A stretch of 19,112 nt of DNA from Oculatellaceae cyanobacterium bins.114. Lineage in GTDB: Bacteria > Cyanobacteriota > Cyanobacteriia > Elainellales > Elainellaceae. The stretch spans positions 1 to 19,112 of the forward strand of contig JANRJA010000054.1 in NCBI GenBank assembly GCA_033764315.1, written 5' to 3'. The position numbers were made by a program, and so were the translations under genes. The notes under the pieces were generated by a model. That model worked only from the letters and a program-made list of their open reading frames with translations. It was not told the DNA's origin and did not search any database. Below are positions 1 through 16,903 of the stretch, one piece after another (position 1 is the stretch's first letter; every line of letters starts with the position of its first letter).

Positions 1-1973
1 TGATCAGCCACGATCGCTAGCGTTGCCAAATCAAACTGATTGCCAATACAGGCGGCCAACTTCAACACGGTCTGGGTAGAGGGGGGCAGTTTTTGCAACT
101 GCTGTGCCATAAACAGCGCGACATCTTCACTGATCGCCAAGGGTTTGATCTGCGCTAAATCACATTCCCAATAGCCCAATTCTCGATTAAAAATAATCAA
201 TCCGTCGCTGTGCAATGCCTTGAGAAACTGGTTAGTGAAAAACGGATTCCCTTGTGTTTTCTGATAGACCAGTTGAGCCAGTGGCAGAGCGGTTTCCACC
301 GAACAACTCAGCGTCTCTGCTATCAGATCATTCATATCCTGCGGCAAGAGGGGCCCCAGGATGAGGGTGTGAGCGATCGCCGGATCGACCTCCTGTAGCG
401 TTAGCATTAAGGGATGACCGGGAGACACTTCGTTATCTCGATAGGCTCCAATGAGCAACAGATGAGAGATGTTTGCCTCAGTTAGCAGCAGTTTAATCAG
501 CGTCAGCGAAGCAGAATCAGCCCATTGTAAATCGTCCAAAAACATCACCAGAGGGTGATCTGGGGTGGTGAGTGCCTGAATGAACTTCTGAAATAGCAGG
601 TTGAATCGGTTTTGGGCTGCCATCCCAGCCAACTCTGGCACAGACGGTTGATCACCAATGATTTGCTCTAATTCTGGAATCACATCCATCAAGACCTGGC
701 TGTTCTCCCCCAGAGCAGTTAAGATGCGGGTGCGCCACTGTTGCAGTTGGGTGTCACTATCACTGAGAATCTGCTGCATCAAGTCTCGTAACGCCTGCAC
801 CAGAGCCGAAAAGGGAATATTGCGTTGGAACTGATCATACTTTCCCTTAATGAAATAGCCCCGCTGACGCACAATCGGCTTGTGTATCTCATTGACCACC
901 GCTGTTTTGCCAATGCCAGAGAAGCCCGCCACTAACACCAACTCGCTGCGGGGTGCTGTCACCTTGCCTGACTGGGCAACCCGATTAAAGGCAGCCAACA
1001 ACTCAGTGACTTCTGCTTGCCGTCCATAAAGCTTTTCTGGAATCACGAAGCGATCGCACAGATCTCGCTGCCCCAACGCAAAAGAGGCGATCGCTCCCGT
1101 TGTTTCCCAAGCGTGTAGACAGGTTGCCAAATCATGTTTCAAGCCTAAAGCACTCTGATAGCGGTCTTCTGCATTTTTCGCCATCAACTTTAAGACAATG
1201 TTTGAAACAGCAGTCGGAATGTTGGTTGTTGAATAGGGCAGGTTAATTTGATCTAGCGGGATGGGCTGCTTAGCCAAGTGACAGTGCACCAATTCCATCA
1301 AATCATCTGAGGGAAAAGGCACCTGCCCCGTCAAAAGTTCATAAAGTGTCACCCCAAATGAGTAAAAATCGGTGCGATAGTCAATCCCTCGATTCATTCG
1401 CCCGGTTTGCTCTGGCGACATGTAAGCCAGCGTGCCTTCTAACCGACTTGGATTTTGAATCTCCTGAGTCTCTCTAGACAACAGGGAAGCAATGGAGAAG
1501 TCAATTAACTTCACCTGATGGGTGTCGGGGTTAATCAGAATATTGGCGGGCTTGATGTCTTTGTGAATGACGCGATATTGATACAGATCATGGAGAATGT
1601 CGGCCATTTGCAGGGCGATCGCTAACACCTCAGTTAACCCTAACGACCACTGCTCAATGTACTGCTCTAGAGAAACGCCACCTACATCTTCCATCACCAG
1701 GGCATAGCCGCTTCCCAGGGGTTCTAAGCTCAAAGGTTGGACGATTCCAGCAACGGGAAGATTTTTGGCGATCGCATATTGATTGTGAAACTGCACCAAT
1801 TCACCAAAGCTTGGATATTCCCGGCGCAACACCTTAATCACCACAGAACGCTGTTGGGCGGTCTGCACCGCGCGATAAACAGCGGTTCTAGACCCCACAT
1901 ACAGTTGCTCAGTGATGGAATAGCCGTCAATGTGAGGTGATGAATGAGAATGGAAGCTCATCGGCAATGTCAT
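1..1973 (-). CDS. 5' part of a multi-domain Ser/Thr protein kinase + AAA ATPase (HstK-like kinase/ATPase/sensor protein); runs off the left edge
   Basis: Not in the ORF track (no stop in window). Read by hand from ATG 1973 (alternative 1961): MTLPMSFHSHSSPHIDGYSITEQLYVGSRTAVYRA...VVIKVL; kinase motifs IHKDIKPANILI, VKLIDFSIA, GTLAYMSPEQTGRMNRGIDYRTDFYS; then P-loop GFSGIGKT and LVMFLDDLQWAD; same frame at the window edge (LAACIGNQFDLATLAIVAD). Confidence 0.93.
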   Translation of the reverse strand, partial: MTLPMSFHSHSSPHIDGYSITEQLYVGSRTAVYRAVQTAQQRSVVIKVLRREYPSFGELVQFHNQYAIAKNLPVAGIVQPLSLEPLGSGYALVMEDVGGVSLEQYIEQWSLGLTEVLAIALQMADILHDLYQYRVIHKDIKPANILINPDTHQVKLIDFSIASLLSRETQEIQNPSRLEGTLAYMSPEQTGRMNRGIDYRTDFYSFGVTLYELLTGQVPFPSDDLMELVHCHLAKQPIPLDQINLPYSTTNIPTAVSNIVLKLMAKNAEDRYQSALGLKHDLATCLHAWETTGAIASFALGQRDLCDRFVIPEKLYGRQAEVTELLAAFNRVAQSGKVTAPRSELVLVAGFSGIGKTAVVNEIHKPIVRQRGYFIKGKYDQFQRNIPFSALVQALRDLMQQILSDSDTQLQQWRTRILTALGENSQVLMDVIPELEQIIGDQPSVPELAGMAAQNRFNLLFQKFIQALTTPDHPLVMFLDDLQWADSASLTLIKLLLTEANISHLLLIGAYRDNEVSPGHPLMLTLQEVDPAIAHTLILGPLLPQDMNDLIAETLSCSVETALPLAQLVYQKTQGNPFFTNQFLKALHSDGLIIFNRELGYWECDLAQIKPLAISEDVALFMAQQLQKLPPSTQTVLKLAACIGNQFDLATLAIVAD

Positions 1974-5227: not shown

Positions 5228-5519
5228 GGGTTTGAGAAATAACCTGCTACTCCCTTGTAGCAGAAACCCCCATTTTCTGTGCCAGATTTACTAAAAAGCA
5301 GAGCTAACTGGAAGGATGAAGTCACCCCTAACCCGCGATTTTGTTCATTTCTAGGGCGATCGCCAAATCACTCCCACACCGTTCCTGGTCTGCTAGCCAC
5401 CCAAGCATCGTCACCGATGGGTATTAGCCAAAAAACCAAGAAACACTACAGTCGTTGTGCCTCGGCTCCGTCCCTAGTAGGCTAGAAAAGCCGACTTTTT
5501 GTTCAACGGTGTTCGATTC

Positions 5520-6023
5520 ATGCAAAAAACCCATGCCTTTGCGATCCTTGCTCCTGTCCCAGAGATGCATTTGATCTCAGGGTTAGAGGCGATCGCCACT
5601 CAACTCGACTCTGATGATCTGCCGCCCGATTACCTGCCCAAAGTTGCCTTTGGCAGCATGGATTTTGAGGTTTTTGGTGAGGTCGAAAAGCTGCGGGGAG
5701 GTAAAGCAATCGACGTTTTTATTTATGCGTCTCATGTCAAAGGGGATCAACCTCTAAATCCAGAAGCCACCTGGCGAGGCTTATACGTCGGCTATGTTGC
5801 CTCTCGTCGAGGTCGTTATCCCGGCAAATCGATTTATCGCCCTCAATCGACGGCTACCGATACTCCAACTTGGGCCGTTTTTTGGGAGGTGCAAGAGCTA
5901 GAGTTGCTAAAAACGCCGATTCCAATTGGAAATTTGCGAGGAAAGAATAAGAAAACCAACTATCAAGCTCGATTCATTCCAGAGGGGCCTGTTTTGATTG
6001 AATATCCAGCCATTCGTTCGTGA
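5520..6023 (+). CDS. Hypothetical protein (~167 aa)
   Basis: ORF 5499-6023 with likelier ATG at 5520 (MQKTHAFAILAPVPE...); globular protein-like composition; fills the gap and ends convergent with the kinase at 6038. Confidence 0.75.
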   Translation: MQKTHAFAILAPVPEMHLISGLEAIATQLDSDDLPPDYLPKVAFGSMDFEVFGEVEKLRGGKAIDVFIYASHVKGDQPLNPEATWRGLYVGYVASRRGRYPGKSIYRPQSTATDTPTWAVFWEVQELELLKTPIPIGNLRGKNKKTNYQARFIPEGPVLIEYPAIRS

Positions 6024-6037
6024 CGCGATTGGTGCCC

Positions 6038-7573
6038 TCACGACGACCGTTGAAACTCCGCCAATAGTGTGAATTCTTTTACAACCCCTGCATAAACCTG
6101 TTCATACACTGAGAATAGCTGTTGATAAGTGTGAAACGCCTTGAGGTCAGGGGAGTGGCGATCGCCCATTTGAATGAGTTTCTCTACATCTTCCAGGTGA
6201 GAGATAGCTTGCACCGCATACATCCCTAAAACGGCTGCGCCAAATGCGCTGCCCTCATACACATGGGGCACCAACACCTCAGACCCAAAGAGATCTGCCG
6301 CCATCTGTCGCCACGGTGCTGAGCGAGCAAACCCCCCTGCCGCTCGAATCTCTGGGGCAGTCCCCGCCAGATCTCGCAATGCCAATATGATGCTGTAAAC
6401 CGCAAACAGCACCCCTTCCATAACCGATCGAATGAAGTGAGCTTTGTGATGGTGCAACCCCACTCCAAAAAAAATGCCACGAGCATCTGGATTCCAATAG
6501 GGTGCTCGTTCTCCTGATAAGAAAGGCAAACAGATCAGCCCTTCTGCACCAGGAGCAATTTGGGTCGCGGCTTGCATCATCAAATCATACGGATCAATCC
6601 CTTGCTGTTGGGCTTGCTGCACCTCAAGAGGACAAAAGTTGTCCCGCAGCCAGCGCAAAACAATGCCCCCGTTATTAGAAGGGCCGCCAATCACCCAATG
6701 ATCTTCAGTCAGCGCATAGCAAAACGTTCGTCCCTTCTCATCGGTCAGCGGTTGAGGGATAACAGCACGAACGGCACTACTGGTGCCAATGGTGACCGCA
6801 ATTTGATGGGGTGCGATCGCCCCAACTCCCAAATTAGCCAGACATCCATCATTTGCCCCAACGACAACTGGCGTGTCAGCAGCAAGTCCCATAATCGCGG
6901 CATGCTCTGGTTTCATGCCACGTAAAATATGGGTGGTTGGCACTAATTCACTCAGTTGATCAGCCCGAATTCCTGCGGTCGCCAGGGCTGTTTCATCCCA
7001 CTGAAGTTGTCTTAGATTCAATAGCCCCATAGCAGAGGCGATCGAGTGATCAACTACAAAGCGATTGAGTAATTGATAGAGAACATATTCCTTGATTGAG
7101 ATAAATCGGACGGCACGGTTAAAGACCTCTGGATTCTCTTCTCGGAGCCACATCAGTTTGGGTAAAGGCGACATGGGGTGAATGGGAGTGCCCGTTTGCA
7201 GATAGAGAGAATGTCCTAAAGCGTCCTGTTTTAATCGGATTGTTTGGGCAATACTGCGATTATCTGCCCAGATTATGGCGTGATGCAGCGGATTGCCACT
7301 AGCATCGATCGCAATGACACTGTGCATGGCTCCACTAAAGCTGATGGCTGCAATCTGCGATCGCCCCACACCTGATTGACTCACAGCCTCTCGAATGGCT
7401 GCAATCACCGCTTGAAAAATGGCATTTGGGTCTTGTTCTGCCCAGCCCGGTTGAGGTACTAATAGCGAATAACCCTGGTTTCCCATGCCTTTGACAGCAC
7501 CTGTGGCAGAAAACACAATGGCCTTGGTGCTAGTAGTGCCAATATCAACGCCAATAAAGTAGTCGTGACTCAT
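6038..7573 (-). CDS. gntK: Gluconokinase (FGGY carbohydrate kinase family)
   Basis: IGVDIGTTSTKA, WADNRS, TGTPIHPMSP, GANDG, TIGTSSAVR, GRTFCY, PFLSGERAPYWN, GGFARS motifs typical of Bacillus-type GntK. Confidence 0.85.
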   Translation of the reverse strand: MSHDYFIGVDIGTTSTKAIVFSATGAVKGMGNQGYSLLVPQPGWAEQDPNAIFQAVIAAIREAVSQSGVGRSQIAAISFSGAMHSVIAIDASGNPLHHAIIWADNRSIAQTIRLKQDALGHSLYLQTGTPIHPMSPLPKLMWLREENPEVFNRAVRFISIKEYVLYQLLNRFVVDHSIASAMGLLNLRQLQWDETALATAGIRADQLSELVPTTHILRGMKPEHAAIMGLAADTPVVVGANDGCLANLGVGAIAPHQIAVTIGTSSAVRAVIPQPLTDEKGRTFCYALTEDHWVIGGPSNNGGIVLRWLRDNFCPLEVQQAQQQGIDPYDLMMQAATQIAPGAEGLICLPFLSGERAPYWNPDARGIFFGVGLHHHKAHFIRSVMEGVLFAVYSIILALRDLAGTAPEIRAAGGFARSAPWRQMAADLFGSEVLVPHVYEGSAFGAAVLGMYAVQAISHLEDVEKLIQMGDRHSPDLKAFHTYQQLFSVYEQVYAGVVKEFTLLAEFQRSS

Positions 7574-8164
7574 ATCAAATAAACAGGCTAATGATTAGAC
7601 CCACCAGGAATCCTACACTCCTCAAATGCTGCAACCGCACTATCGTCAGTGGTATCTGATTTTGGGAGACTTTGAGCCTTTGCCAAGGATCTTGCCCCCA
7701 CCTGAAACACCTGCATGGGGGAGATTCCCCCAATGCCTGTTTTCACACACTTGCAACAACTCTGCACCTCATTTACAAGGAAGCAGAGATCTGTTGTACA
7801 CAGTAGCTCTTTGGGAGAGAGTGAGGGCGGATGGCAATTCATGTCTCTGTTCAGCAACACCTTTTTCTCAAGTGAAATTTTAGTTCAGAGTTTAGTTAGC
7901 GAGAGCTACTTCAATAACTTAAAAATTTTGTTCGCACTAAAACTGGGATTCAATCAAGTAACCCCTCAAAATCTATCTCTAGATATAGAGCCAAAAAGCT
8001 CTCTTTAGAAATAAAGTCAGCACGTTGTGAGCAAATTGCGTTTTGGTTTGAAGACTTTAAGTGCTTTGAATGGGATGCCTGTTGAAGCATCAGGACAACG
8101 AATTGAACGCTAAATAAATAGTTTCACCTTCAACTAAACCCATACTTAGTTAATGAGGAATCTG

Positions 8165-9208: not shown

Positions 9209-9736
9209 TCAAAGCTTTGTCGTAAATCGTAACCACCGCTGAATTCCCTGATTTAACCCGCGCGAAACGGGTTTGACCGGGTTGAGAGAGTAAGACTCTC
9301 GCCGAGTTGATTTTGCCACGGGTTCAGCTTTGAGGGGAATATCCAAAACAGTGACAAACGCCTGCCCCGAAGCTGCATTGGAGACAGCCGAGGCCGTGGT
9401 GGTTGAGGCCGTGGTGGTCGAGGCAGTGGTGATCGAGGCAGCCACTGTTGGGTCAGCAGGAATAGCCTTGAACAGCTTACTACATACCAGATCGGCAAAT
9501 TCACTGTCAAAGTGATGTTGTGGACGACCATTGAGATACCAATTCAATAAGATGTTATCGACCGAAGCAACCTTATAGCGTCCCTGAAAGATAGCTTCTA
9601 CTACTGCTGCGATCGCCCATTTAGGAGGATATTCCTCTAACCAGCCTTGTACAATCTGCTCAATGTCATATCCACCCAGATCAAAACTGTAGTAGCTCAA
9701 AAGCGCAGAAATAGATGCAGCAGGACTTCTAGACAT
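9209..9736 (-). CDS. Conserved cyanobacterial hypothetical protein, DnaD/DnaB_2-like helical domain (paralogue 1) with low-complexity tail
   Basis: YSFDL...W..EY...W...AVVEAIFQGRYKVASVDNILLNW...G.P..HFD.EFADLVC; 50 of the first 88 residues identical (ungapped, hand count) to the ORF at 12430. The DnaD-like call is inference. Confidence 0.8.
   Translation of the reverse strand: MSRSPAASISALLSYYSFDLGGYDIEQIVQGWLEEYPPKWAIAAVVEAIFQGRYKVASVDNILLNWYLNGRPQHHFDSEFADLVCSKLFKAIPADPTVAASITTASTTTASTTTASAVSNAASGQAFVTVLDIPLKAEPVAKSTRRESYSLNPVKPVSRGLNQGIQRWLRFTTKL
9390..9440. repeat. 15-bp tandem repeat (~3.4 units) encoding ASITT-ASTTT-ASTTT-AS
   Basis: GAGGCCGTGGTGGTT / GAGGCCGTGGTGGTC / GAGGCAGTGGTGATC / GAGGCA. 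Confidence 0.9.
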
Positions 9737-9843
9737 GGCTCTCTAATTGACTAAGTTAACCTTTCAAGATCAAATCGTTGAATAGCTGATTTGCCGTTAC
9801 TTGTCATTTGCAAACAACTCACGACCCATAACCCCTAACTACA

Positions 9844-10422
9844 CTACTCGTCGTACAACATGGCATGGCATTCCGGTGGAGAGTGGGGGCCTGTCAGCGT
9901 AAAAACATCGTAATCACTCTGGTCATAGTTGCGGTCAGGATAGTACAACACGACTGCTGATTCCTCAGGGCGGTTATTGGCGATCGCCATCACGCAATCG
10001 GGATCAAGCAATCGTTTGCGTTCAATATAGGCAATTTCTGGTCCCTCGTTGGTTTCAGTAAACACAACCGCTCCAGGGCCATAGTGTTTATAGCCTTTCC
10101 ACGAGAGTGCCAAAATTTGATCGCAATATCTCGCCACTTTTTGCATGAGATGTTGTGGGGCTGAGCTGGTTGCCGCTTCCTCCACCACAGGAGGGTTGAT
10201 GTCATCAGGCACCCACTCCAGCAAATCGCCTGGTTGACAGTTGAGAGCAGCACAAATTCCATTCAGGCGATCGGGAGCTAAGCGAGGCATTTCATCCACC
10301 TTGCGCAACCGATAAACAGAATTTTCAGTAATGTCTAACGCTTCTGCAAGATCTTTGTTGCGCACCCGGTTGCGTGCCATTACCTCATTGAGCTTCCAGC
10401 GGATCACGTCAAATTGCTGCAT
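9844..10422 (-). CDS. Xre/Cro-C1 family (HTH_26-type) transcriptional regulator with an extra C-terminal domain
   Basis: IRWKLNEVMARNRVRNKDLAEALDITENSVYRLRK...LNGICAALNCQPGDLLEW is a classic HTH_26 pattern; ATG 10422 (alternative TTG 10437); ~100-aa unrecognised C-terminal domain. Confidence 0.9.
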   Translation of the reverse strand: MQQFDVIRWKLNEVMARNRVRNKDLAEALDITENSVYRLRKVDEMPRLAPDRLNGICAALNCQPGDLLEWVPDDINPPVVEEAATSSAPQHLMQKVARYCDQILALSWKGYKHYGPGAVVFTETNEGPEIAYIERKRLLDPDCVMAIANNRPEESAVVLYYPDRNYDQSDYDVFTLTGPHSPPECHAMLYDE

Positions 10423-10464
10423 AGAAGTACGATTCAAGTTTACTATTCTCAGCCTAAAGTAGAT

Positions 10465-10493
10465 ACTCTACGTGAGATGACGATTTTTGTAAA
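10465..10493 (-). promoter_or_regulatory. Predicted sigma70-type promoter of the Xre gene
   Basis: Minus strand TTTACA-N17-TAGAGT; the spacer/-10 overlaps a degenerate operator copy (TCTACGT-gag-ATGACGA, 10467-10483). Confidence 0.6.
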
Positions 10494-10501
10494 TTATAAG
10501 G

Positions 10502-10533
10502 TTGACATTAATCTACGTTAGACGTAGATTAAT
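10502..10533 (+). promoter_or_regulatory. Sigma70-type promoter with overlapping perfect palindromic operator
   Basis: TTGACA (10502-10507)-N17-TAGATT (10525-10530); ATTAATCTACGT-tag-ACGTAGATTAAT (10507-10533) is a perfect 12-bp inverted repeat. Confidence 0.8.
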
Positions 10534-10607
10534 AAACATTAGACAGGCGGTTGGGTTTTCTACATCTGTGCGCCCCTAGCACTGCCTTCTAACTCACCCA
10601 ATATTCA

Positions 10608-11027
10608 ATGGAGTTTTATATGACATCTGCTCAGCCTACTCAGTCTGCGGCTCAAACGCGTGCGTCTGTTGATCTAACCGCGGCAACCCCTAACTCTTCG
10701 GTCTCTGCTGAGGTGACACAACCCCATCCTGGAAATCAAACTCATTTCAAATCGGCGGGAGAAGATCGAGGATCAGGTCGGGTGCAATTGGCGCAACCGA
10801 TTCCTTTATCTAAGTCGTGTCGCTCCAAAATAAAACAGCCTATGGACAATAATTCACTCAGATTGATTGCCATCGGTTCTCGACAAACCTTGATCAACAA
10901 CATGAAAATGCTTCACATGTTGAACTATGCCGAAATTGGAGCTTGGAGCAAACTCCAACGTGGTCCTAATCCTGGAGAGTTTATGAGTGTTTTAACCCTG
11001 CGATCGCCCCATCCCTGGATCTCATAA
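10608..11027 (+). CDS. Hypothetical protein with internal RGSGR motif and a cyanobacterial-type C-terminal domain
   Basis: 139 aa (alternative start 10620); EDRGSGR with RGSGR at 10767-10781; the C-terminal LIAIGS...LHMLNYAEIGAWSKLQRGPNPGEFMSVL resembles a small cyanobacterial family I recall lying divergent from Xre genes. Confidence 0.8.
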   Translation: MEFYMTSAQPTQSAAQTRASVDLTAATPNSSVSAEVTQPHPGNQTHFKSAGEDRGSGRVQLAQPIPLSKSCRSKIKQPMDNNSLRLIAIGSRQTLINNMKMLHMLNYAEIGAWSKLQRGPNPGEFMSVLTLRSPHPWIS

Positions 11028-11071
11028 CCTCAACGTTGATTAAAGTCCTTCAGTTGTGATGGAGCAAAGCA

Positions 11072-11668
11072 GTGCAATTCTTTTCTAACCGCCTTGGCAA
11101 CGTTTCCAATCCACACCAATCCTATGAATATGAGGATGCGTACCAGGATGAGGCCAGGTATGCCAATCACCACAGTCACTATAGCCATGATTACAACGCT
11201 AGCTATGACAATGGCTACAATAACAGGCCAGATGAGCATTACATGGGTGGTTCCTCCTATTCCAATAGACCGCACTATCAATCGGGTGATGCCAATACTT
11301 ATGCCAGGGGCGATTACCCGCCGCGATCGCCCTATCCCAATTCCACTACTCCGACACCGGGCAACCGTAGCTCAGGAGCAGCCAGCAAGTTTACTCACAT
11401 TGCCGAAGCAGGTCATCGAATCACTGAGGTATTGGTCATAGAACCCACTTCCTTTGAAGAAATACCGTCTGTGGTTCAAGCATTACGAGATTACAAATCT
11501 GTAGTGTTAAATCTAGCTGCCATGAGTCCAGACTATACACAACGGGCTATTGACTTTATCACAGGTGGTACTCATGCCATGGATGGAAATTATGAACGCA
11601 TTGGTGAAGGAATTTTTTTGTTCACCCCAAGTTGCGTTCAAGTTAGTACTCAAGCCCACTCCACTTAA
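11072..11668 (+). CDS. sepF: Cell division protein SepF family paralogue
   Basis: C-terminal EVLVIEPTSFEEIPSVVQALRDYKSVVLNL...QRAIDFITGGTHAMDGNYERIGEGIFLFTPSCVQVS is the SepF core; GTG start, short amphipathic N-terminus (MQFFSNRLGNV), long Y/H/N/D/S-rich linker. Confidence 0.88.
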   Translation: MQFFSNRLGNVSNPHQSYEYEDAYQDEARYANHHSHYSHDYNASYDNGYNNRPDEHYMGGSSYSNRPHYQSGDANTYARGDYPPRSPYPNSTTPTPGNRSSGAASKFTHIAEAGHRITEVLVIEPTSFEEIPSVVQALRDYKSVVLNLAAMSPDYTQRAIDFITGGTHAMDGNYERIGEGIFLFTPSCVQVSTQAHST

Positions 11669-11681
11669 GCAACGAATGAAT

Positions 11682-11717
11682 TTAGATCTCCAACTTGAGC
11701 AAAAGCTGGAGATCTAA
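11682..11717 (+). terminator. Stem-loop immediately after sepF (terminator or 3' stabilising hairpin)
   Basis: TTAGATCTCCA (11682-11692) / TGGAGATCTAA (11707-11717), perfect 11-bp arms plus inner CTT/AAG; no long U-tract. Confidence 0.6.
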
Positions 11718-12335
11718 GATAAACACTCTTGAAAGTGCTCTATATCTATCTCCTAACGCTCAAAAAACACGTCTTGATAGGGTGGTGAATCACTGAGATA
11801 TTGCTAAGTTAAAGCATAACTTTTGCAAAGGCATTTTACGCAATACGCTTACATTAAGCAATCAATCAGCATGAATTGCACAAATCAAATTAAGCTTATT
11901 CCATTTAGCAGAGCAAATTACTAACTGAATGGGTAGCTTTTTTCATTGACTCAGTTTTCTTTTTAGCCCCTATAGTAATTATTGCTATCGGAAGCAAAAT
12001 CATCGACTGCTTCTCCAAAAAATAATCAAACTCATTTTTATCAACTAAATTAAAACAGCTCTAGATCACAAAATTAGTTCTATTGTAAAAGACTTTATGC
12101 TGTACCTGTCAGAAGAATTGAAGGTTAATTATTTCACAGCATGAATTAGAGCAGGGTCAAAAAGTCGATTGGAAAGTAAGATGTTTTATGTATAGACACT
12201 TTACAATTTGAGGCAAAATGCGGGGCTGCGAGGAAAGATTCGTCGCTTAAAAATACAGAATGGCAGTACCATAAGTCTCCCCTGTCAAAGTTTTCGTAAC
12301 GGTTTAAACATAGAGTAAACACAACAGATTAGTAT

Positions 12336-12375
12336 GAGGGCTGATCCTCATATGGGGTGTCACCCTCTTTTTTTT
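12336..12375 (+). terminator. Intrinsic-terminator-like hairpin with T8 tract in the leader of the 12430-16903 gene run
   Basis: GAGGG-c-TGA-t-CCTC-atat-GGGG-tg-TCA-CCCTC followed by TTTTTTTT. Confidence 0.5.
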
Positions 12376-12429
12376 AAATAAGGATTTCCGTATTATCTAT
12401 CCACAAGTAAGACTTCATATATTCTCACT

Positions 12430-12762
12430 ATGCGACACAATCCATCTGCATCTACCTCCGTTCTACTAACCCATTACTGTTTTGATTTAGAAGAACAGAC
12501 AACTGAAGAAGTCGTGAGAAACTGGTTAGCTGAATATCCTGCTAAGTGGGTTCTCTCAGCAATTGTTGAAGCACTCTATCAAGGACGCTATAAAGTTGCA
12601 TCGGTTGAAAAAATTCTGTTTCATTGGCGTCTTCGGGGTCAGCCAACAAGCCATTTTGATCGAGAGTTTGCTGACTTGGTCTGTTGTAATTTGTTGCGTA
12701 GGGCACGATTAAGAGCACAGAAAATGAGAGCCAGACAGACCCTTTTAGACGCGATCGCCTAG
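12430..12762 (+). CDS. Conserved cyanobacterial hypothetical protein, DnaD/DnaB_2-like helical domain (paralogue 2)
   Basis: 110 aa; AIVEALYQGRYKVASVEKILFHWRLRGQPTSHFDREFADLVC; ~57% identical to 9209-9736 over 88 aa; basic C-terminal helix. Confidence 0.82.
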   Translation: MRHNPSASTSVLLTHYCFDLEEQTTEEVVRNWLAEYPAKWVLSAIVEALYQGRYKVASVEKILFHWRLRGQPTSHFDREFADLVCCNLLRRARLRAQKMRARQTLLDAIA

Positions 12763-12857
12763 CTTAACTCAAGCTAGCTCAGGCTGCTTCTTTGTTTGCA
12801 CTGTGGTTAGACTCTCTATTGTTTCAATGGACACCGTTTAGTTAATACTTTAATGCC

Positions 12858-13682
12858 ATGTCTACTTGTTCTGTGAGTCCATCTAATGTTGACATCGATA
12901 CCTATTTTGATACGCTGGATTTCGATGTCTATGATTTTGATGTAACAGCTACCTTAATTAAAGCGAGCAATTCTGACTGCAAATTTCGATTACCTGTCCC
13001 TGCCTATCCCGTTACTCATTCCGAAAGCAAAGCACCCCACCGACAACTTGCTTTAGAGCAGGCCGCCTATGAAGTCAGCTTACTCGCTCGACAGTTAGAC
13101 AGCTCACCCTTCATCCTTGAGCCTTTTGAAGACATCTATCGAGTTACAAATCCACACCGGGCTAAATCTCGGTCGGCTCTGCGCCATCTATCTGCTATTG
13201 TTTTAGGGCTGACCGTATCTATCCTCCCGGTGTATGCCTATTACAGTCACTGCTCAACAGCGATGTCGTGTCTCTATGGGGCTAAGCATCAACTGATGGG
13301 AGTGGTTAGCGGCGCGAAGCAGTTTCTCCGTTGGGGCGATCGCCCTCCAACCATGCAGGCACTATCCAACACGATCTCTAGTGCTCAAACACCTGTCCCC
13401 GTTAGTGATCCCTTCAGAGAAGCTGTCAACCAAGCCACACGAGCCGCTGAGCTAACCCAAACAGCAACCCAAGCAGCCGACTGGGAAACAGTCACCAACA
13501 GTTGGTTAGAAGCGATTCGATTGATGAACTTAACACCCTCTACCAATCCTCGATATAGTACAGCTGCACTCAAAGTTGAGGAATATGCCAAGAATCTAGC
13601 CTATGCTCAACGCCGCTTGAGAGAAGCCACTCACCTAACTGAAACCCAGACCACTTCATCTCCAGCCAAGCAGATTGAGTAA
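12858..13682 (+). CDS. Hypothetical single-pass membrane protein with C-terminal alpha-helical domain
   Basis: Hydrophobic segment LSAIVLGLTVSILPVYAYY; C-terminal DPFREAVNQATRAAELTQTA...W...W.EAI.LM...P...PRY..A..KV.EY..NL.YAQ, a pattern common in cyanobacterial hypothetical proteins. Confidence 0.78.
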   Translation: MSTCSVSPSNVDIDTYFDTLDFDVYDFDVTATLIKASNSDCKFRLPVPAYPVTHSESKAPHRQLALEQAAYEVSLLARQLDSSPFILEPFEDIYRVTNPHRAKSRSALRHLSAIVLGLTVSILPVYAYYSHCSTAMSCLYGAKHQLMGVVSGAKQFLRWGDRPPTMQALSNTISSAQTPVPVSDPFREAVNQATRAAELTQTATQAADWETVTNSWLEAIRLMNLTPSTNPRYSTAALKVEEYAKNLAYAQRRLREATHLTETQTTSSPAKQIE

Positions 13683-13710
13683 CACAGGTAGCTAATAAGC
13701 CAGCACATCC

Positions 13711-15825
13711 ATGAAATACCAACGAGCTATGTTATCAGGAGCAGATGTGGTCAAAACACTAGCCTTAAGCATTTTTCAAATGCTGTTTGAGTCTAGTAGC
13801 AGAGTACTCTATCAACTCAACGAATCACTCCAACAAGAAGTATTCAAAGCGTCTAATAAATACAACCAAAACTACTCTGAACGACACGGCACACTCAAGG
13901 TGTTGGGGATGCGAGAGCCAATTCCACTGGAATCGGTGTATATTGCAGTGCAGTTTTTAGACAACAACACGATTCGTCGGTTTGAAACCATCGAAGCGTT
14001 AGAGAATGTCTATCGTCAGGCACAGCAGCGAAGCCTTTATAACGGGGTGGGCAAGCGTAAATCTGGGCTAGAAGTAGCCAATCAAACCCAATATATGATG
14101 GTCTTGGGTGGACCTGGGATGGGGAAGTCTACTTTTTTACGCAAGGTGGGGCTAGAGATCTTGACCCACAATCAACCACCTTGTTTTCAACATGACTGCA
14201 TTCCTGTGTTGATTGAGCTAAAAGAGTTTCGGTTGAGCGACATCAACATTGAGGGGGCGATCGCCAACGAGTTTGAAACCTGCGGATTCCCATATCACCA
14301 AAAATTTACTCGGGCAGCCCTGGAGCAAGGAAAGCTACTCATTTTGTTAGATGGACTGGATGAAGTCCCTGCCGAACGGATGAGTGAAGCCATTGCTAAA
14401 ATTCGCAACTTTGTCGATCGCTATGACAAAAATCGCTTTATCATTTCCTGTCGGATCGCCGCTTATCGGCACAACTTTCGTCGGTTTACCGATGTTGAAA
14501 TTGCAAATTTTGACGATCAACAGATTTATCAGTTTATTCAACATTGGTTTGCTCACGATGCTTACAAAGGGCAAGAGTGTTGGACAAAGTTAGTGAGTAG
14601 TGACTATGCAGCCGCTAAAGAGTTAACCCATACACCGCTCTTATTAACCCTGACCTGTTTGCTCTATCAACGGGCAGGTCAGTTTCCGACTAATCGAGCC
14701 ACCCTCTACGAAAAAGCACTCCGCACTCTGTTAGAAGAGTGGTCTGGAGAGAAAGGGCTTCCTCAAGCCTCTCTGTATCGCGGACTCGATACAAAACGAA
14801 AGGAACTCATGATCTCTAAGATTGCCTATGATGCCTTTCAAAACAATCGTTTCTTTTTGTCTAGACGCGAGCTTGCCAGTCAAATTGAGCATCTGTTGAA
14901 AGAAATGCTGCCAGATGAACCCTTCATTGACGGGTATGCGGTTTTGAAGTCTATCGAAGTTCACCACGGTATTTTGGTAGAACGAGCTGAAGGCATCTAT
15001 TCGTTTTCTCACTTAACACTGCAAGAGTTTTTGACGGCTCAGCACATCATCGACACTCGACAAGATGTTCAAGAGGTGGTGGTGCAACATTTGGTAGATC
15101 ATCACTGGCGAGAGGTGTTTTTGTTATTAGCGGGATTGCAACAAGCTGATGAGTTGCTGGTCATGATGGAGAAACAGGCGACTAGTCTGATTCAGACACC
15201 CAATCTGCGTAACTTGCTAACCTGGGCAGATCAGATCACTACCGGATCTGAAGGAAGCTATAAACCTGTTGTCAAACGGGCGATCGCCATGTTCTTAGCA
15301 CTCGATTTGGCTCAAGCTTTAGCACTGGATCAGGCACGAGTCAGAGCTTTAAATTTGGATATCGATCGCGCTCGTAATCTTGCCCTGGCACTTGACCACA
15401 CCCTGACATTAAATCGGGCACTTGATTTGGCATTGGTGCGGGCACTCGACCTGTCTCGTGCGCTCGATCTAGTCATAGACATTGCCCATAAATTTGAAGA
15501 GATCAAAATTTTTCACCTGGTCAAATTTAATGTGCTAATTGCTTGGCTAGATGCACTAAAAGTTAAAGCTCCCCATTACCAAAAAACGTTGGCATCCCGT
15601 AAAGCATTTATTGAACAAGTTCATCAAACCTGGTTAAATGCACTCAATCTACATCGAGAATGGATCAATTTGTCACGCAGCGAAGTCACAGCCCTCGATC
15701 AATATCTTTTCGCAAATCTGTTAATAGTTCAGTGTAGGCGATCGGCTGTATGGGTTTCACCCCAAACCTGGGAAACGATTGAGGATAAAATCATGCGGGT
15801 TAGTGCAACCTATACTAATCTATAG
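13711..15825 (+). CDS. NACHT-domain STAND NTPase
   Basis: Walker A GGPGMGKST, Walker B LLILLDGLDE, ISCR, TPLLLTL, YSFSHLTLQEFLTA, WREVFLL; C-terminal (R)ALDLA-type repeats and helical domain. Confidence 0.93.
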   Translation: MKYQRAMLSGADVVKTLALSIFQMLFESSSRVLYQLNESLQQEVFKASNKYNQNYSERHGTLKVLGMREPIPLESVYIAVQFLDNNTIRRFETIEALENVYRQAQQRSLYNGVGKRKSGLEVANQTQYMMVLGGPGMGKSTFLRKVGLEILTHNQPPCFQHDCIPVLIELKEFRLSDINIEGAIANEFETCGFPYHQKFTRAALEQGKLLILLDGLDEVPAERMSEAIAKIRNFVDRYDKNRFIISCRIAAYRHNFRRFTDVEIANFDDQQIYQFIQHWFAHDAYKGQECWTKLVSSDYAAAKELTHTPLLLTLTCLLYQRAGQFPTNRATLYEKALRTLLEEWSGEKGLPQASLYRGLDTKRKELMISKIAYDAFQNNRFFLSRRELASQIEHLLKEMLPDEPFIDGYAVLKSIEVHHGILVERAEGIYSFSHLTLQEFLTAQHIIDTRQDVQEVVVQHLVDHHWREVFLLLAGLQQADELLVMMEKQATSLIQTPNLRNLLTWADQITTGSEGSYKPVVKRAIAMFLALDLAQALALDQARVRALNLDIDRARNLALALDHTLTLNRALDLALVRALDLSRALDLVIDIAHKFEEIKIFHLVKFNVLIAWLDALKVKAPHYQKTLASRKAFIEQVHQTWLNALNLHREWINLSRSEVTALDQYLFANLLIVQCRRSAVWVSPQTWETIEDKIMRVSATYTNL

Positions 15826-15912
15826 CAATCTCAAATGGGTTGTAAGAGGCGCATCCCTCAGGTGGTCGCCTCTCACAACTCACCCACCTCACAACTGATT
15901 TAGAACTGCTAT
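15821..15912. mobile_element. ~92-bp MITE-like dispersed repeat between the NACHT gene and hetR
   Basis: Imperfect terminal inverted repeats TATAGCAATCTCAAATGGGTTGTAAG / CTCACAACTGATTTAGAACTGCTAT, internal hairpin AGAGGCG...CGCCTCT; related ends recur at 18974-19092; supplies the NACHT TAG stop. Confidence 0.75.
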
Positions 15913-15946
15913 GTCGTGAGCGTTAAAATGTTTGTTTGTTATTAAA

Positions 15947-16903
15947 ATGTCAGACCAAATTTCGTATTCAAACTCTATATCTGGAAGGAACATCAATCAT
16001 TATACCAATCATGATTTGAAGGCTTTTGAGATCCCTAACTCCTGTGCAACCGATCAGATCTTGATCCGACTAGCAATTAATATCATGCAGGGTGGGGGAC
16101 ATCGCTATGGTGCTTTTTTAGATGCCGCTATGACGGCTGCAAAGTTTGCGATCTATACAACCTATCTCAGTGAAGGAAAAAACTTTCGCAAGACGGGGCT
16201 GTTGCACCACGTTGAACCCAAACGGGTGAAGACCATTGTTCAAGAAGTGGAGTCTGCCTTAACAGAAGGCAAATTGCTCAAAACCCTGGCCTCACAAGAG
16301 CCCTACTACTTAATTTGTCTTCCCCATCTGTGGTTAAAAAAGTATCCCTGGACTCCGGTTCAGCCTCGATTGCCGATGATTGGCTTAACACAGGAAGAAA
16401 AGTTGGAGGTTGAAGCGTCTCTGCCAGATAACTTACCAAACGCCTTGGTCACTACAGAGTTTCAATTTATGGAACTGATTGAACTGCTGCATTTAGAATC
16501 ACAGAAAGATTTACCAGATGCGCATCGCGTTCCCCTCAGCGATGCCCTAATTGAGCATATCAAGTTGCGGTTACTCTACTCTGGTACAGTAGTGCAAGTT
16601 CACTCGCCACGAGGGTTTCCCTTTTATTGTCTGGCACGCACCTCTTATTCTCCTCAAGATGAGCGAGAACGGATCTATACCATGTTTGAGGATGTAGACG
16701 GTTTTTTTCAACTCTTACAGGCTTGGGTTAATAAGGAGCCTGGGGTTTTACGAGGGTTAGAAGTCTTTGAAGTAGAGCTTGAGCGCAAAGACGAAGCCCT
16801 GCAAGAATTGGACAAACTCATTCAAGCCTGGGCCGACAAATATCATCAAGAAGGCGGACAGCCTATGGTTTTGCACTTAGCCGCAGGTACTATTACAAAG
16901 TAG
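15947..16903 (+). CDS. hetR: Divergent HetR-family transcriptional regulator (probable hetR paralogue)
   Basis: GHRYGAFLDAAMTAAK, HHVEPKRVK, EGKLLKTLASQEP, EHIKLRLLYSGTV, ELDKLIQAWADKYHQEGG align collinearly with HetR; ATG 15947 (ORF track TTG 15932); N-terminal extension relative to the 299-aa HetR. Confidence 0.93.
   Translation: MSDQISYSNSISGRNINHYTNHDLKAFEIPNSCATDQILIRLAINIMQGGGHRYGAFLDAAMTAAKFAIYTTYLSEGKNFRKTGLLHHVEPKRVKTIVQEVESALTEGKLLKTLASQEPYYLICLPHLWLKKYPWTPVQPRLPMIGLTQEEKLEVEASLPDNLPNALVTTEFQFMELIELLHLESQKDLPDAHRVPLSDALIEHIKLRLLYSGTVVQVHSPRGFPFYCLARTSYSPQDERERIYTMFEDVDGFFQLLQAWVNKEPGVLRGLEVFEVELERKDEALQELDKLIQAWADKYHQEGGQPMVLHLAAGTITK

Follow-up and report, generated by a model that had tools for sequence, protein, structure and literature searches.

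A conserved cyanobacterial gene cluster with a divergent HetR homolog, a new kind of RGSGR-bearing protein and a SepF-like protein

Results

Gene content of the cluster

The window analyzed here is a 19,112-nt stretch of DNA from Oculatellaceae cyanobacterium bins.114 (contig JANRJA010000054.1), within which eight genes had been proposed to form a regulatory cluster at 9209-16903. All eight were found as open reading frames at the proposed positions, together with several candidate regulatory sites:

9209..9736, minus strand: DnaD-like protein A, 175 aa; 3' of xre, with which it shares the strand (sub-threshold Pfam DnaB_2 match, E 0.004)
9844..10437, minus strand: Xre/Cro-C1-type HTH regulator, 197 aa (HTH_26, E 3.9e-19)
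10465..10493, minus strand: xre promoter-like site TTTACA-17-TAGAGT (consensus scan), within the first 100 intergenic nt, which are conserved
10502-10530, plus strand: promoter-like site TTGACA-17-TAGATT (consensus scan)
10507-10533: perfect palindrome with 12-nt arms and a 3-nt spacer, a putative Xre operator; promoter and palindrome together span 10502..10533
10620..11027, plus strand (ORF 10608-11027): RGSGR protein, 135 aa; motif at nt 10767-10781, residues 50-54
11072..11668, plus strand: SepF-like protein, 198 aa (PF04472, E 6.4e-23)
11669..12429, no strand: AT-rich non-coding gap, 761 nt (GC 0.37-0.39)
12354..12365, plus strand: GGGGT-N3-ACCC box, ~65 nt before the start codon of DnaD-like B
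12430..12762, plus strand: DnaD-like protein B, 110 aa, paralog of A (DnaB_2, E 0.008)
12858..13682, plus strand: protein with one hydrophobic segment, 274 aa (Kyte-Doolittle); no family
13711..15825, plus strand: NACHT NTPase with C-terminal NCH2, 704 aa (Pfam NACHT and NCH2)
15947..16903, plus strand: HetR-like transcription factor, 318 aa; ATG at 15947, the ORF opening at TTG 15932

The window contains no integrase, transposase or tRNA gene and no Rfam family, its GC content is not atypical save in the non-coding gap, and PADLOC matched none of the eight cluster proteins.

Conservation of the locus

The same eight genes, identical in order and orientation, were detected at a second locus, L001, in a metagenome-assembled genome labeled Crinalium sp. 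This locus is closely related to the window and is the sole one fetched with full synteny; 35 of the 36 hetR loci, which came from one contig scan with query-specific peptide patterns and are silent on canonical hetR in the same genomes, have none of the other seven cluster genes. For the window against L001, dS values are saturated or no lower than 1.27, and dN/dS ranges from 0.08 to 0.36 in the six genes for which it could be computed, including xre (0.081), DnaD-like A (0.087), DnaD-like B (0.089) and the one-segment protein (0.18). Identity to the L001 ortholog is 85% for the NACHT NTPase, 84% for Xre, 71% for DnaD-like A and 50% for the one-segment protein, and the flank downstream of hetR is unlike in the two genomes.

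Matching database records point to co-occurrence of cluster proteins in six further assemblies: the HetR-like, RGSGR and SepF-like proteins in two, the RGSGR and SepF-like proteins in three, and the HetR-like and RGSGR proteins in Oscillatoria sp. FACHB-1407, a strain for which no literature mention was found and which is absent from the supplements of PMC12756182. The cluster is thus a conserved unit in a few filamentous cyanobacteria and not a chance neighborhood, as the original prediction had supposed on gene content, given that all eight genes are syntenic in L001 at saturated dS and beside a different hetR-side flank. The predicted synteny around HetR homologs holds for L001 and fails at the other 35 loci, so that in the data at hand it is confined to a narrow lineage.

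A previously undescribed kind of RGSGR carrier

The RGSGR gene had been described as encoding a small protein that bears the motif. The motif is present, but its carrier is no small peptide like PatS or PatX; it is a two-part protein of 135 aa that belongs to a new family. Translation likely starts at ATG 10620, as indicated by a conserved GGAG and by the N-termini of homologs, and yields a disordered N-terminal arm that bears the motif, followed by a folded C-terminal domain of ~50 residues (residues ~79-128). In the structure model, pLDDT is 96-98 in the blocks covering residues 81-120 and 54-68 in those covering 1-80. The protein has no match in Pfam, NCBIfam, PADLOC or PHROG, and a Foldseek search of its model against the PDB gave no match at E <= 0.001; the best sub-threshold matches, an archaeal ribosome chain (9zni_BW, rank 1) and MinE, at E 0.07-0.13, are a mere lead.

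The motif is under strong constraint. It is invariant in 9/9 close relatives, though the N-terminal arm around it is only 15% identical and evolves at a dN/dS of ~0.7, and it remains so across a family reaching down to 23% identity. A profile search for the wider family recovered RG[ST]GR in 33 of 156 proteins; among the 36 motifs that these carry, the preceding residue is G, D or E in 32 and the following one L, V, I or F in 32. On a tree of the C-terminal domain the motif-bearing members group together, with 3 changes where shuffling gives 23.1. Six-frame translations of the window and the 36 hetR loci contain RG[ST]GR three times: in the window gene, in its L001 ortholog and in a PatX-like 80-aa ORF in L003. 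The presence of the motif in the window is therefore more than chance. Related ORFs consisting of the C-terminal domain only lie near integrase genes on both Nostocales plasmid regions inspected, where their neighborhoods give no functional hint.

PatS is a very short peptide with RGSGR at its end, and HetN has a short-chain dehydrogenase fold with an internal RGSGR. The cluster protein can be ruled out as either one, having 81 residues beyond the motif and no Pfam or NCBIfam domain, respectively. PatX has in addition to RG(S/T)GR a hydrophobic N-terminal signal sequence (PMC12756182) and, like PatS, an upstream DIF1 promoter element (PMC7377430). Here, the 9-residue hydropathy maximum over residues 1-45 is 0.86 and the 19-residue maximum 0.47, which argues against a Sec-type signal, and DIF1 (TCCGGA) has no site in the whole window; PatX is accordingly ruled out as well. 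We conclude that the protein is a previously undescribed kind of RGSGR carrier.

It could be argued that these genes are unrelated neighbors kept together by descent and that the RGSGR sequence plays a role unconnected with HetR, as full synteny is seen at just one other locus, and that in a related lineage. We consider this highly improbable. Gene order has stayed intact despite saturated dS and an altered flank, two of the three RG[ST]GR occurrences in the 37 loci fall in the RGSGR gene, the motif is invariant over a family with identities as low as 23%, and cluster proteins appear together in the six further assemblies suggested by matching records.

Divergent HetR-like and SepF-like proteins

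The HetR-like protein matches Peptidase_S48 (E 9e-66, 220.9 bits) and the hood domain HetR_C (E 4e-22, 78.3 bits) in Pfam, against a cut-off of 27, and it aligns to the solved HetR chain 4hri_B with 370 bits. On the NCBIfam equivalog 'master regulator HetR' it scores 383.1 bits, below the cut-off of 489, and calling it a divergent HetR was therefore fair. In our trees it falls outside the canonical HetR clade, which unites very different orders on short branches and has a support of 100 and a stem of 0.51-0.55. Residue roles taken from PMC4649674 allow the clade to be examined further: the DNA-contact residues R62, H69, E71, K73, R74 and K76 and the PatS6-binding residues R223, E253, D270 and D278 are kept in 6/6 members, E254 is V in all six, and D256 is E in five and N in one. 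According to the same source, single E254A or D256A substitutions weaken PatS6 binding but do not abolish it (PMC4649674).

The SepF-like gene starts 44 nt past the RGSGR gene, and its assignment is borne out by a PF04472 core domain at residues 120-191 (81.2 bits). In BLASTP, most canonical SepFs are 55-73% identical to it across 39-57% of the query. The N-terminal amphipathic helix of SepF is its membrane anchor. The corresponding motif, [IL]Fx[KR][ILV][KR]D, occurs in 104/112 canonical SepFs but in 0/8 of the cluster type, which have 3-4 hydrophobic residues at positions 2-14 compared to a canonical mean of 6.0; the N-terminal half is degenerate, fast-evolving and rich in Tyr, Asn and Asp. 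On the SepF tree these proteins form a separate clade with a support of 100. The trees thus place both the HetR-like and the SepF-like protein, as foreseen, in distinct, fast-evolving clades apart from the canonical ones.

An alternative explanation is that these are not paralogs at all, but the diverged, only HetR system and only SepF of the lineage, with the RGSGR protein as a lineage-specific replacement for PatX. Identity across HetR matches does fall gradually, from 64% to 54% without a clear step, and the HetR residues for DNA contact and the essential ones for PatS binding are kept. The well-supported canonical HetR clade nevertheless excludes the window clade. Crinalium epipsammum PCC 9333, a namesake of the genome labeled Crinalium sp. 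that carries L001, is listed with one hetR and two patX genes (PMC12756182, Table S3, with the columns ordered as we read them), and Leptolyngbya BL0902 is reported to have three hetR-like ORFs (PMC11298460), so HetR paralogy does occur. SepF is, moreover, described as essential in Anabaena (PMC12288457), yet the helix motif is missing from all eight cluster SepFs. Taken together, we regard an only-copy origin as unlikely, and both proteins may be paralogs, second copies as originally suggested.

Xre and candidate regulatory DNA

The Xre assignment holds (HTH_26, 69.1 bits); the protein also has an uncharacterized C-terminal domain of ~100 aa, and it matches PHROG repressor families at E 1e-4 to 1e-2. 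Its structure model is unusable (mean pLDDT 49.6). The palindrome upstream of xre overlaps the promoter-like site of RGSGR-sepF, an arrangement that conforms to Xre/Cro-C1 architecture. Its pattern is unique in the window (0.04 matches expected), and in L001 the arms are conserved and the center is different, so that, as judged from its sequence and position, it is a putative Xre operator.

Only the last ~130 nt of the 761-nt gap are conserved with L001. GGGGT-N3-ACCC has two exact matches in the window, compared to 0.11 expected, and one in L001, at the homologous place, compared to 0.04 expected. The core of the box at 12354 is identical to that of the hetP site shown in PMC4649674; the box can alternatively be read as a weak hairpin followed by T8 and would then fit a weak terminator. 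The second match lies within the NACHT gene, at 15752, and was set aside: it encodes the conserved VWVSPQTW, and coding accounts for the retention of its L001 counterpart. Plain GGGN5CCC shows no enrichment, with 5 occurrences in the window against 3.1 expected.

NACHT, DnaD-like and one-segment proteins

The NACHT NTPase is confirmed by Pfam matches to NACHT (E 8.6e-12; 45.6 bits, cut-off 26.7) and NCH2 (E 3.8e-12), by a Walker A motif, GGPGMGKS, at residue 133 and by a Walker B motif, LILLDG, at residue 210; no effector domain was recognized. Of the two DnaD-like proteins, the original prediction was right about their mutual likeness (49% identity in the alignment; 56-60% by tblastn across the initial 90 residues). 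The DnaD label itself is weakly supported: both fall below the DnaB_2 (PF07261) cut-off of 22 bits, at 17.2 for A and 16.3 for B, and in the Atlas structural comparison DnaB_2 families match at TM 0.51-0.58 and cyanobacterial clusters named 'putative DnaD domain' at 0.75. The 274-aa protein has a single hydrophobic segment at residues 107-125 (19-residue Kyte-Doolittle maximum 1.69) and no family match in Pfam.

Could the locus instead be a conflict or abortive-infection island, in which the NACHT protein senses an invader, mobile elements are the source of Xre and the DnaD-like proteins, and the HetR-like and SepF-like proteins have been recruited as effectors to halt growth or division? Several features fit such a scenario, including the NACHT-NCH2 combination and its match to NACHT-like PHROG families (E 9e-28), a weak match (56.9 bits) to EruA, which is an antiphage protein, an arrangement of Xre and operator that is typical of phage switches, the DnaD fold, which is common among phage replication proteins, a hetR-side flank that varies between genomes, and the plasmid-borne C-domain-only ORFs beside integrase genes. 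Against it, the EruA score is far under the cut-off of 1000, PADLOC recognizes none of the cluster proteins, the NACHT protein has no recognized effector domain, integrases, transposases and tRNAs are absent from the window, base composition is unremarkable outside the gap, and a search of 72,556 plasmids with the HetR-like protein returned no HetR homolog. We consider this scenario still less probable than an only-copy origin, although clearly more credible than a mere survival of unrelated neighbors.

Discussion

Starting from what was observed, namely the genes present, their synteny, the conserved residues and motifs, the clade placements and the DNA motifs, we infer the interactions, the direction of regulation and a role as a cell-fate or division switch as follows. 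The cluster would constitute a self-contained HetR-type regulatory module of two transcription units that couples HetR-like activity and cell division, a proposal to which we give even weight for and against. In the first unit, a divergent pair, xre (followed by dnaD-like A) would face the RGSGR-sepF operon and, because the palindrome read as its operator overlaps the operon promoter, Xre would keep that operon silent until repression is lifted by a signal that the Xre C-terminal domain may sense. The second unit would comprise dnaD-like B and the genes for the one-segment protein, the NACHT NTPase and the HetR-like protein and, with a conserved HetR-site-like box before it, may be controlled by the HetR-like protein itself.

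We envisage the HetR-like protein as a functional dimer that binds DNA and whose pocket for RGSGR is intact, with the RGSGR protein as its cognate inhibitor. The latter is predicted to be cytoplasmic, as it has no signal peptide, and the motif might be presented by, or released from, the disordered arm tethered to the small folded domain. Anabaena SepF is described as not only essential but also dose-critical, with over-expression stopping division, and as being shut off early in differentiating cells (PMC12288457). Because the SepF-like protein keeps the FtsZ-binding core but not the membrane helix, it could perturb Z-ring assembly and, since it appears to be co-transcribed with the RGSGR inhibitor, one decision would set HetR-like activity and cell division together.

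Several points count against this module. A cytosolic Nostoc PatX deprived of its signal sequence is reported neither to bind HetR in two-hybrid assays nor to inhibit differentiation (PMC12756182), and R223 of HetR faces the free C-terminal carboxylate of PatS6 (PMC4649674); by analogy, an RGSGR inside a protein may therefore depend on cleavage, and the cluster has no evident protease. In Leptolyngbya BL0902, the effects of PatX on transcription looked largely HetR-independent in the account of PMC11298460. The altered E254 and D256, the weak-terminator reading of the 12354 box, the lack of enrichment of plain GGGN5CCC and the restriction of full synteny to a single fetched locus weigh against the module as well, as does the fact that the NACHT, DnaD-like and one-segment proteins have no part in the explanation.

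It is tempting to speculate further that the RGSGR protein represents a fourth class, cytoplasmic and with its motif on a disordered arm, which together with a paralogous HetR and an anchor-less SepF forms an autonomous activator-inhibitor switch. We offer this stronger version as a doubtful but not fanciful idea. If true, such a switch would set cell fate and division in non-heterocystous filamentous cyanobacteria independently of canonical HetR/PatX, for instance by placing necridia, breakage points or dormant cells. The role of HetR and RGSGR in cyanobacteria without heterocysts has been called 'a mystery' (PMC11298460), and the cluster provides a compact system for studying how an ancient activator-inhibitor pair couples to cell division. 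In addition, the occurrence of RG[ST]GR before the same C-terminal domain in 33 of the 156 listed proteins suggests that a class of HetR ligands escapes current surveys, in which the inhibitors are defined as PatS, PatX and HetN.

A known system of this kind, HetR with PatS, PatX and HetN in Anabaena/Nostoc PCC 7120, resembles the cluster in having a HetR-family regulator with intact DNA-contact residues, and the cluster has a linked, invariant RGSGR, before which an acidic residue often stands, as it does in ERGSGR (PatS6), as well as a HetR-site-like box adjoining one operon. In contrast, the cluster HetR lies outside the canonical clade and under the equivalog cut-off. Its RGSGR carrier, unlike the PCC 7120 inhibitors, is devoid of signal peptide, DIF1 promoter and SDR domain, is 135 aa long with the motif mid-protein in a disordered arm before a folded domain, and would be co-transcribed with a SepF homolog under a putative Xre-type operator.

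Another parallel is the patX-hetR operon of Leptolyngbya sp. BL0902, where a HetR of the non-heterocystous type likewise has an RGSGR gene nearby and where the three hetR-like ORFs show that extra HetR copies exist (PMC11298460). As described there, however, patX directly precedes hetR, the two are transcribed together from a predicted DIF1 promoter, and patX fits the PatX definition (PMC11298460), whereas the cluster RGSGR gene is 5 kb from the hetR-like gene, in another operon, and departs from that definition.

The SepF-like protein shares the core domain of canonical cyanobacterial SepF, a Z-ring component, but differs in lacking the N-terminal helix motif and in being encoded outside the yggS/proC context. 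A tie between a HetR-centered program and Z-ring components, SepF included, is known from Anabaena PatA, PatD and PatU3/HetF (PMC12288457, PMC9457339). These are unrelated proteins that bind the divisome, whereas in the cluster a SepF paralog would itself be the tool.

Gene content and conservation of the cluster

Eight ORFs occupy positions 9209-16903 of the window: DnaD-like A and xre on the minus strand, followed by the RGSGR gene, the SepF-like gene, DnaD-like B, a gene for a 274-aa one-TM protein, the NACHT gene and the HetR-like gene. The gene list of the original prediction holds, and Pfam recognised the Xre-type regulator (HTH_26, E 3.9e-19), the SepF core (E 6.4e-23), the NTPase (NACHT plus an NCH2 domain) and HetR (Peptidase_S48, E 9e-66; HetR_C, E 4e-22); it placed neither the RGSGR protein nor the 274-aa protein in a family. 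The two small proteins that had been called paralogous and DnaD-like are present as paralogues, but their DnaB_2 matches stay below the Pfam threshold (E 0.004 and 0.008). Full-text literature searches turned up no description of the HetR-SepF cluster, in line with the earlier statement that none was known, and none of an RGSGR protein with this C-terminal domain (C-domain); Elhai and Khudyakov (2018) may bear on both.

The genes flanking the cluster are ordinary chromosomal ones (FGGY kinase, carotenoid oxygenase, methyltransferase, hydrolase, msrA and msrB), and no tRNA, integrase or transposase was found in the window. Between the genes for the carotenoid oxygenase and the FGGY kinase sits a 174-aa ORF (5499-6023, plus strand) that has no Pfam family. 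A gene cut by the left edge (3-1973, minus strand) encodes a Ser/Thr protein kinase with a fused AAA_16 ATPase domain; relatives of its kinase domain occur within a few kb of hetR in loci L021, L022, L023 and L028 of our genome scan.

That scan of genome contigs gave 36 hetR loci. The synteny in relatives on which the original prediction depended is complete in one of them, L001 (a contig of 18.4 kb from a MAG with the label Crinalium sp.), where all seven partner genes are kept in the order and orientation of the window, but the partner genes are missing from the other 35, bar L019, in which 73 residues match the C-terminal region of the 274-aa protein. Synonymous sites have reached saturation between the window and L001: dS is 1.27-2.35 where it can be computed, which excludes the NACHT and HetR genes, and the six remaining genes have dN/dS values of 0.08-0.36. 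Conservation extends to the NACHT, DnaD-like and one-TM genes. Downstream of hetR, msrA/msrB in the window stand against a hydrolase, mnmA and a sigma factor in L001.

Co-occurrence was also read from protein searches, in which equal longest-contig values among close relatives were taken as the same contigs. On that basis, relatives of the HetR-like, RGSGR and SepF-like proteins occur all together at values 178715 and 9041, HetR-like and RGSGR relatives at 411784 (Oscillatoria sp. FACHB-1407), and RGSGR and SepF-like relatives at 16081, 2825 and 4978.

Between the NACHT and hetR-like genes, L001 holds a non-coding, AT-rich stretch of about 1 kb (6996-8003) with no ORF of at least 60 aa; the same gap is 121 nt in the window. 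The NACHT protein carries a run of ALDLA-like five-residue repeats between its NACHT and NCH2 domains (window 15261-15450, residues ~518-580), near-identical in L001, which recalls pentapeptide repeats such as those of HetL.

The RGSGR protein and its wider family

A conserved GGAG and the N-termini of homologues place the start of the RGSGR protein at ATG 10620, giving 135 aa. Only eight close relatives were found in a set of 5.8 billion proteins, and RGSGR is invariant in all nine aligned sequences; the arm ahead of it shares 15% identity with its L001 counterpart (dN/dS about 0.7). AlphaFold modelled residues 79-128 as a beta-alpha-beta-beta domain (pLDDT 96-98) and gave residues 1-80, motif included, a pLDDT of 54-68; Foldseek found no PDB match for the model at E <= 0.001. 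The protein is without a hydrophobic N-terminus and TCCGGA has zero sites across the whole window, so that it does not qualify as a PatX by the criteria of PMC12756182 and PMC7377430.

Searched with a profile, 1.84 billion representatives yielded 204 proteins at E <= 0.001, of which the best 150, with the close family, make up the 156 proteins counted here. RG[ST]GR occurs in 33 of them, as 36 motifs (35 being RGSGR) with G, D or E at residue -1 in 32 and L, V, I or F at residue +1 in 32; the 123 without it are mostly 65-120 aa long and consist of just the C-domain. On a FastTree of 124 C-domains (30 of 154, in which the anchor pattern missed the domain, were left out), the motif requires 3 changes, against 23.1 by shuffling. 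Among 37 hetR loci the C-domain is confined to the window and L001, and RG[ST]GR to these two and one ORF of L003 (Mojavia pulchra; 1339-1581, minus strand). This 80-aa ORF, ~8.5 kb from hetR, has a hydrophobic N-terminus and HRGSGR near its C-terminus, and looks PatX-like.

Other variation was seen within the family. An extra conserved N-terminal module, GTRF..GHWWEV...C.P.C...RF, is present in P0266, P0267, P0272, P0280, P0290, P0310, P0353 and P0363, and P0256, P0263 and P0270 have two RGSGR copies each. Small C-domain-only ORFs also lie on large Nostocales plasmids (L037 3956-4219; L038 3953-4189), with tyrosine recombinase or integrase genes close by.

Regulatory DNA

Between xre and the RGSGR gene, conservation with L001 is about 90% over the first 100 nt of intergenic DNA, and this stretch contains two divergent promoter-like sites, one of which is overlapped by a palindrome that is unique in the window (0.04 matches expected):

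10507-10533, perfect palindrome, 12-nt arms, overlapping the spacer and -10 of the RGSGR promoter

After sepF comes a 761-nt AT-rich gap that can be aligned with L001 only over its last ~130 nt, where GGGGT-N3-ACCC occupies a homologous place in both. The box has the core of the hetP site gcgaggggtctaacccctcat and fits the GGGN5CCC consensus, which is indispensable according to PMC4649674; the same bases can also be read as a weak hairpin followed by T8. An inverted repeat just past the sepF-like stop (11685-11717; 9-nt arms, 15-nt loop, no T-run) is missing from L001. The GGGGT-N3-ACCC box recurs in four loci of Calothrix type, ~3.8 kb downstream of their canonical hetR, and may be a conserved HetR target there:

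L008, 13807-13818, GGGGT-N3-ACCC box
L013, 13805-13816, GGGGT-N3-ACCC box
L033, 13808-13819, GGGGT-N3-ACCC box
L035, 13755-13766, GGGGT-N3-ACCC box

A divergent HetR and a SepF of its own clade

The HetR-like protein scores 383 bits against the NCBIfam equivalog cut-off of 489 and is therefore a divergent HetR, as originally proposed. Its identity is 89% with an Oscillatoria sp. FACHB-1407 protein and 54-55% with Nostocales HetR, and it matches the solved HetR chain 4hri_B with 370 bits. In all six members of its clade, the DNA-contact residues R62, H69, E71, K73, R74 and K76 are intact, as are R223, E253, D270 and D278 among the PatS6-binding residues (R223, E253, E254, D256, D270 and D278; both sets from PMC4649674); position E254 is V throughout the clade, and D256 is replaced by E in five members and by N in the sixth.

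In unrooted trees with rows hand-picked from the best 120 of 1547 matches (84 rows in a quick tree, 46 in a careful one), this clade (support 100) falls outside the canonical HetR clade, alongside a small number of other divergent sequences. Short branches characterise the canonical clade, which has a stem of 0.51-0.55 (support 100) and brings together Nostocales, Elainellaceae, Phormidesmis, Geitlerinema PCC 7407 and Microcoleaceae. The tree position is an indirect hint of paralogy. Similarly indirect hints come from the Crinalium label of L001 taken with a single hetR and two patX in C. epipsammum (supplement table of PMC12756182, with the column order as we read it), from the three hetR-like ORFs of Leptolyngbya BL0902 (PMC11298460) and from the tandem hetR copies of Trichodesmium (PMC9189399).

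The SepF-like core shares mostly 55-73% identity with canonical cyanobacterial SepFs over 39-57% of the query. Eight cluster-type SepFs form one long-branched clade (support 100), separate from 112 canonical ones. The N-terminal helix [IL]Fx[KR][ILV][KR]D, which from Bacillus SepF work we take to be the membrane anchor, is present in none of the eight versus 104 of the 112.

Proposed mechanism and comparison with known systems

Our best reading is that the cluster pairs a HetR-type activator with a dedicated cytoplasmic RGSGR protein as putative inhibitor, and that this inhibitor and an anchor-less SepF would be co-expressed, with Xre as the switch. The cluster may instead be part of a defence island, but PADLOC returned no match to it. 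With regard to the SepF arm of the proposed activator-inhibitor switch, PMC12288457 reports that Anabaena SepF is essential, blocks division when over-expressed, is turned off early in differentiating cells and is bound by PatA. With regard to the inhibitor, a simple binding model is disfavoured, because in Nostoc a cytosolic form of PatX that lacked the signal sequence failed both to bind HetR and to inhibit differentiation (PMC12756182) and because R223 of HetR faces the free carboxylate of the peptide (PMC4649674). Given this last contact, the RGSGR protein may need to be processed.
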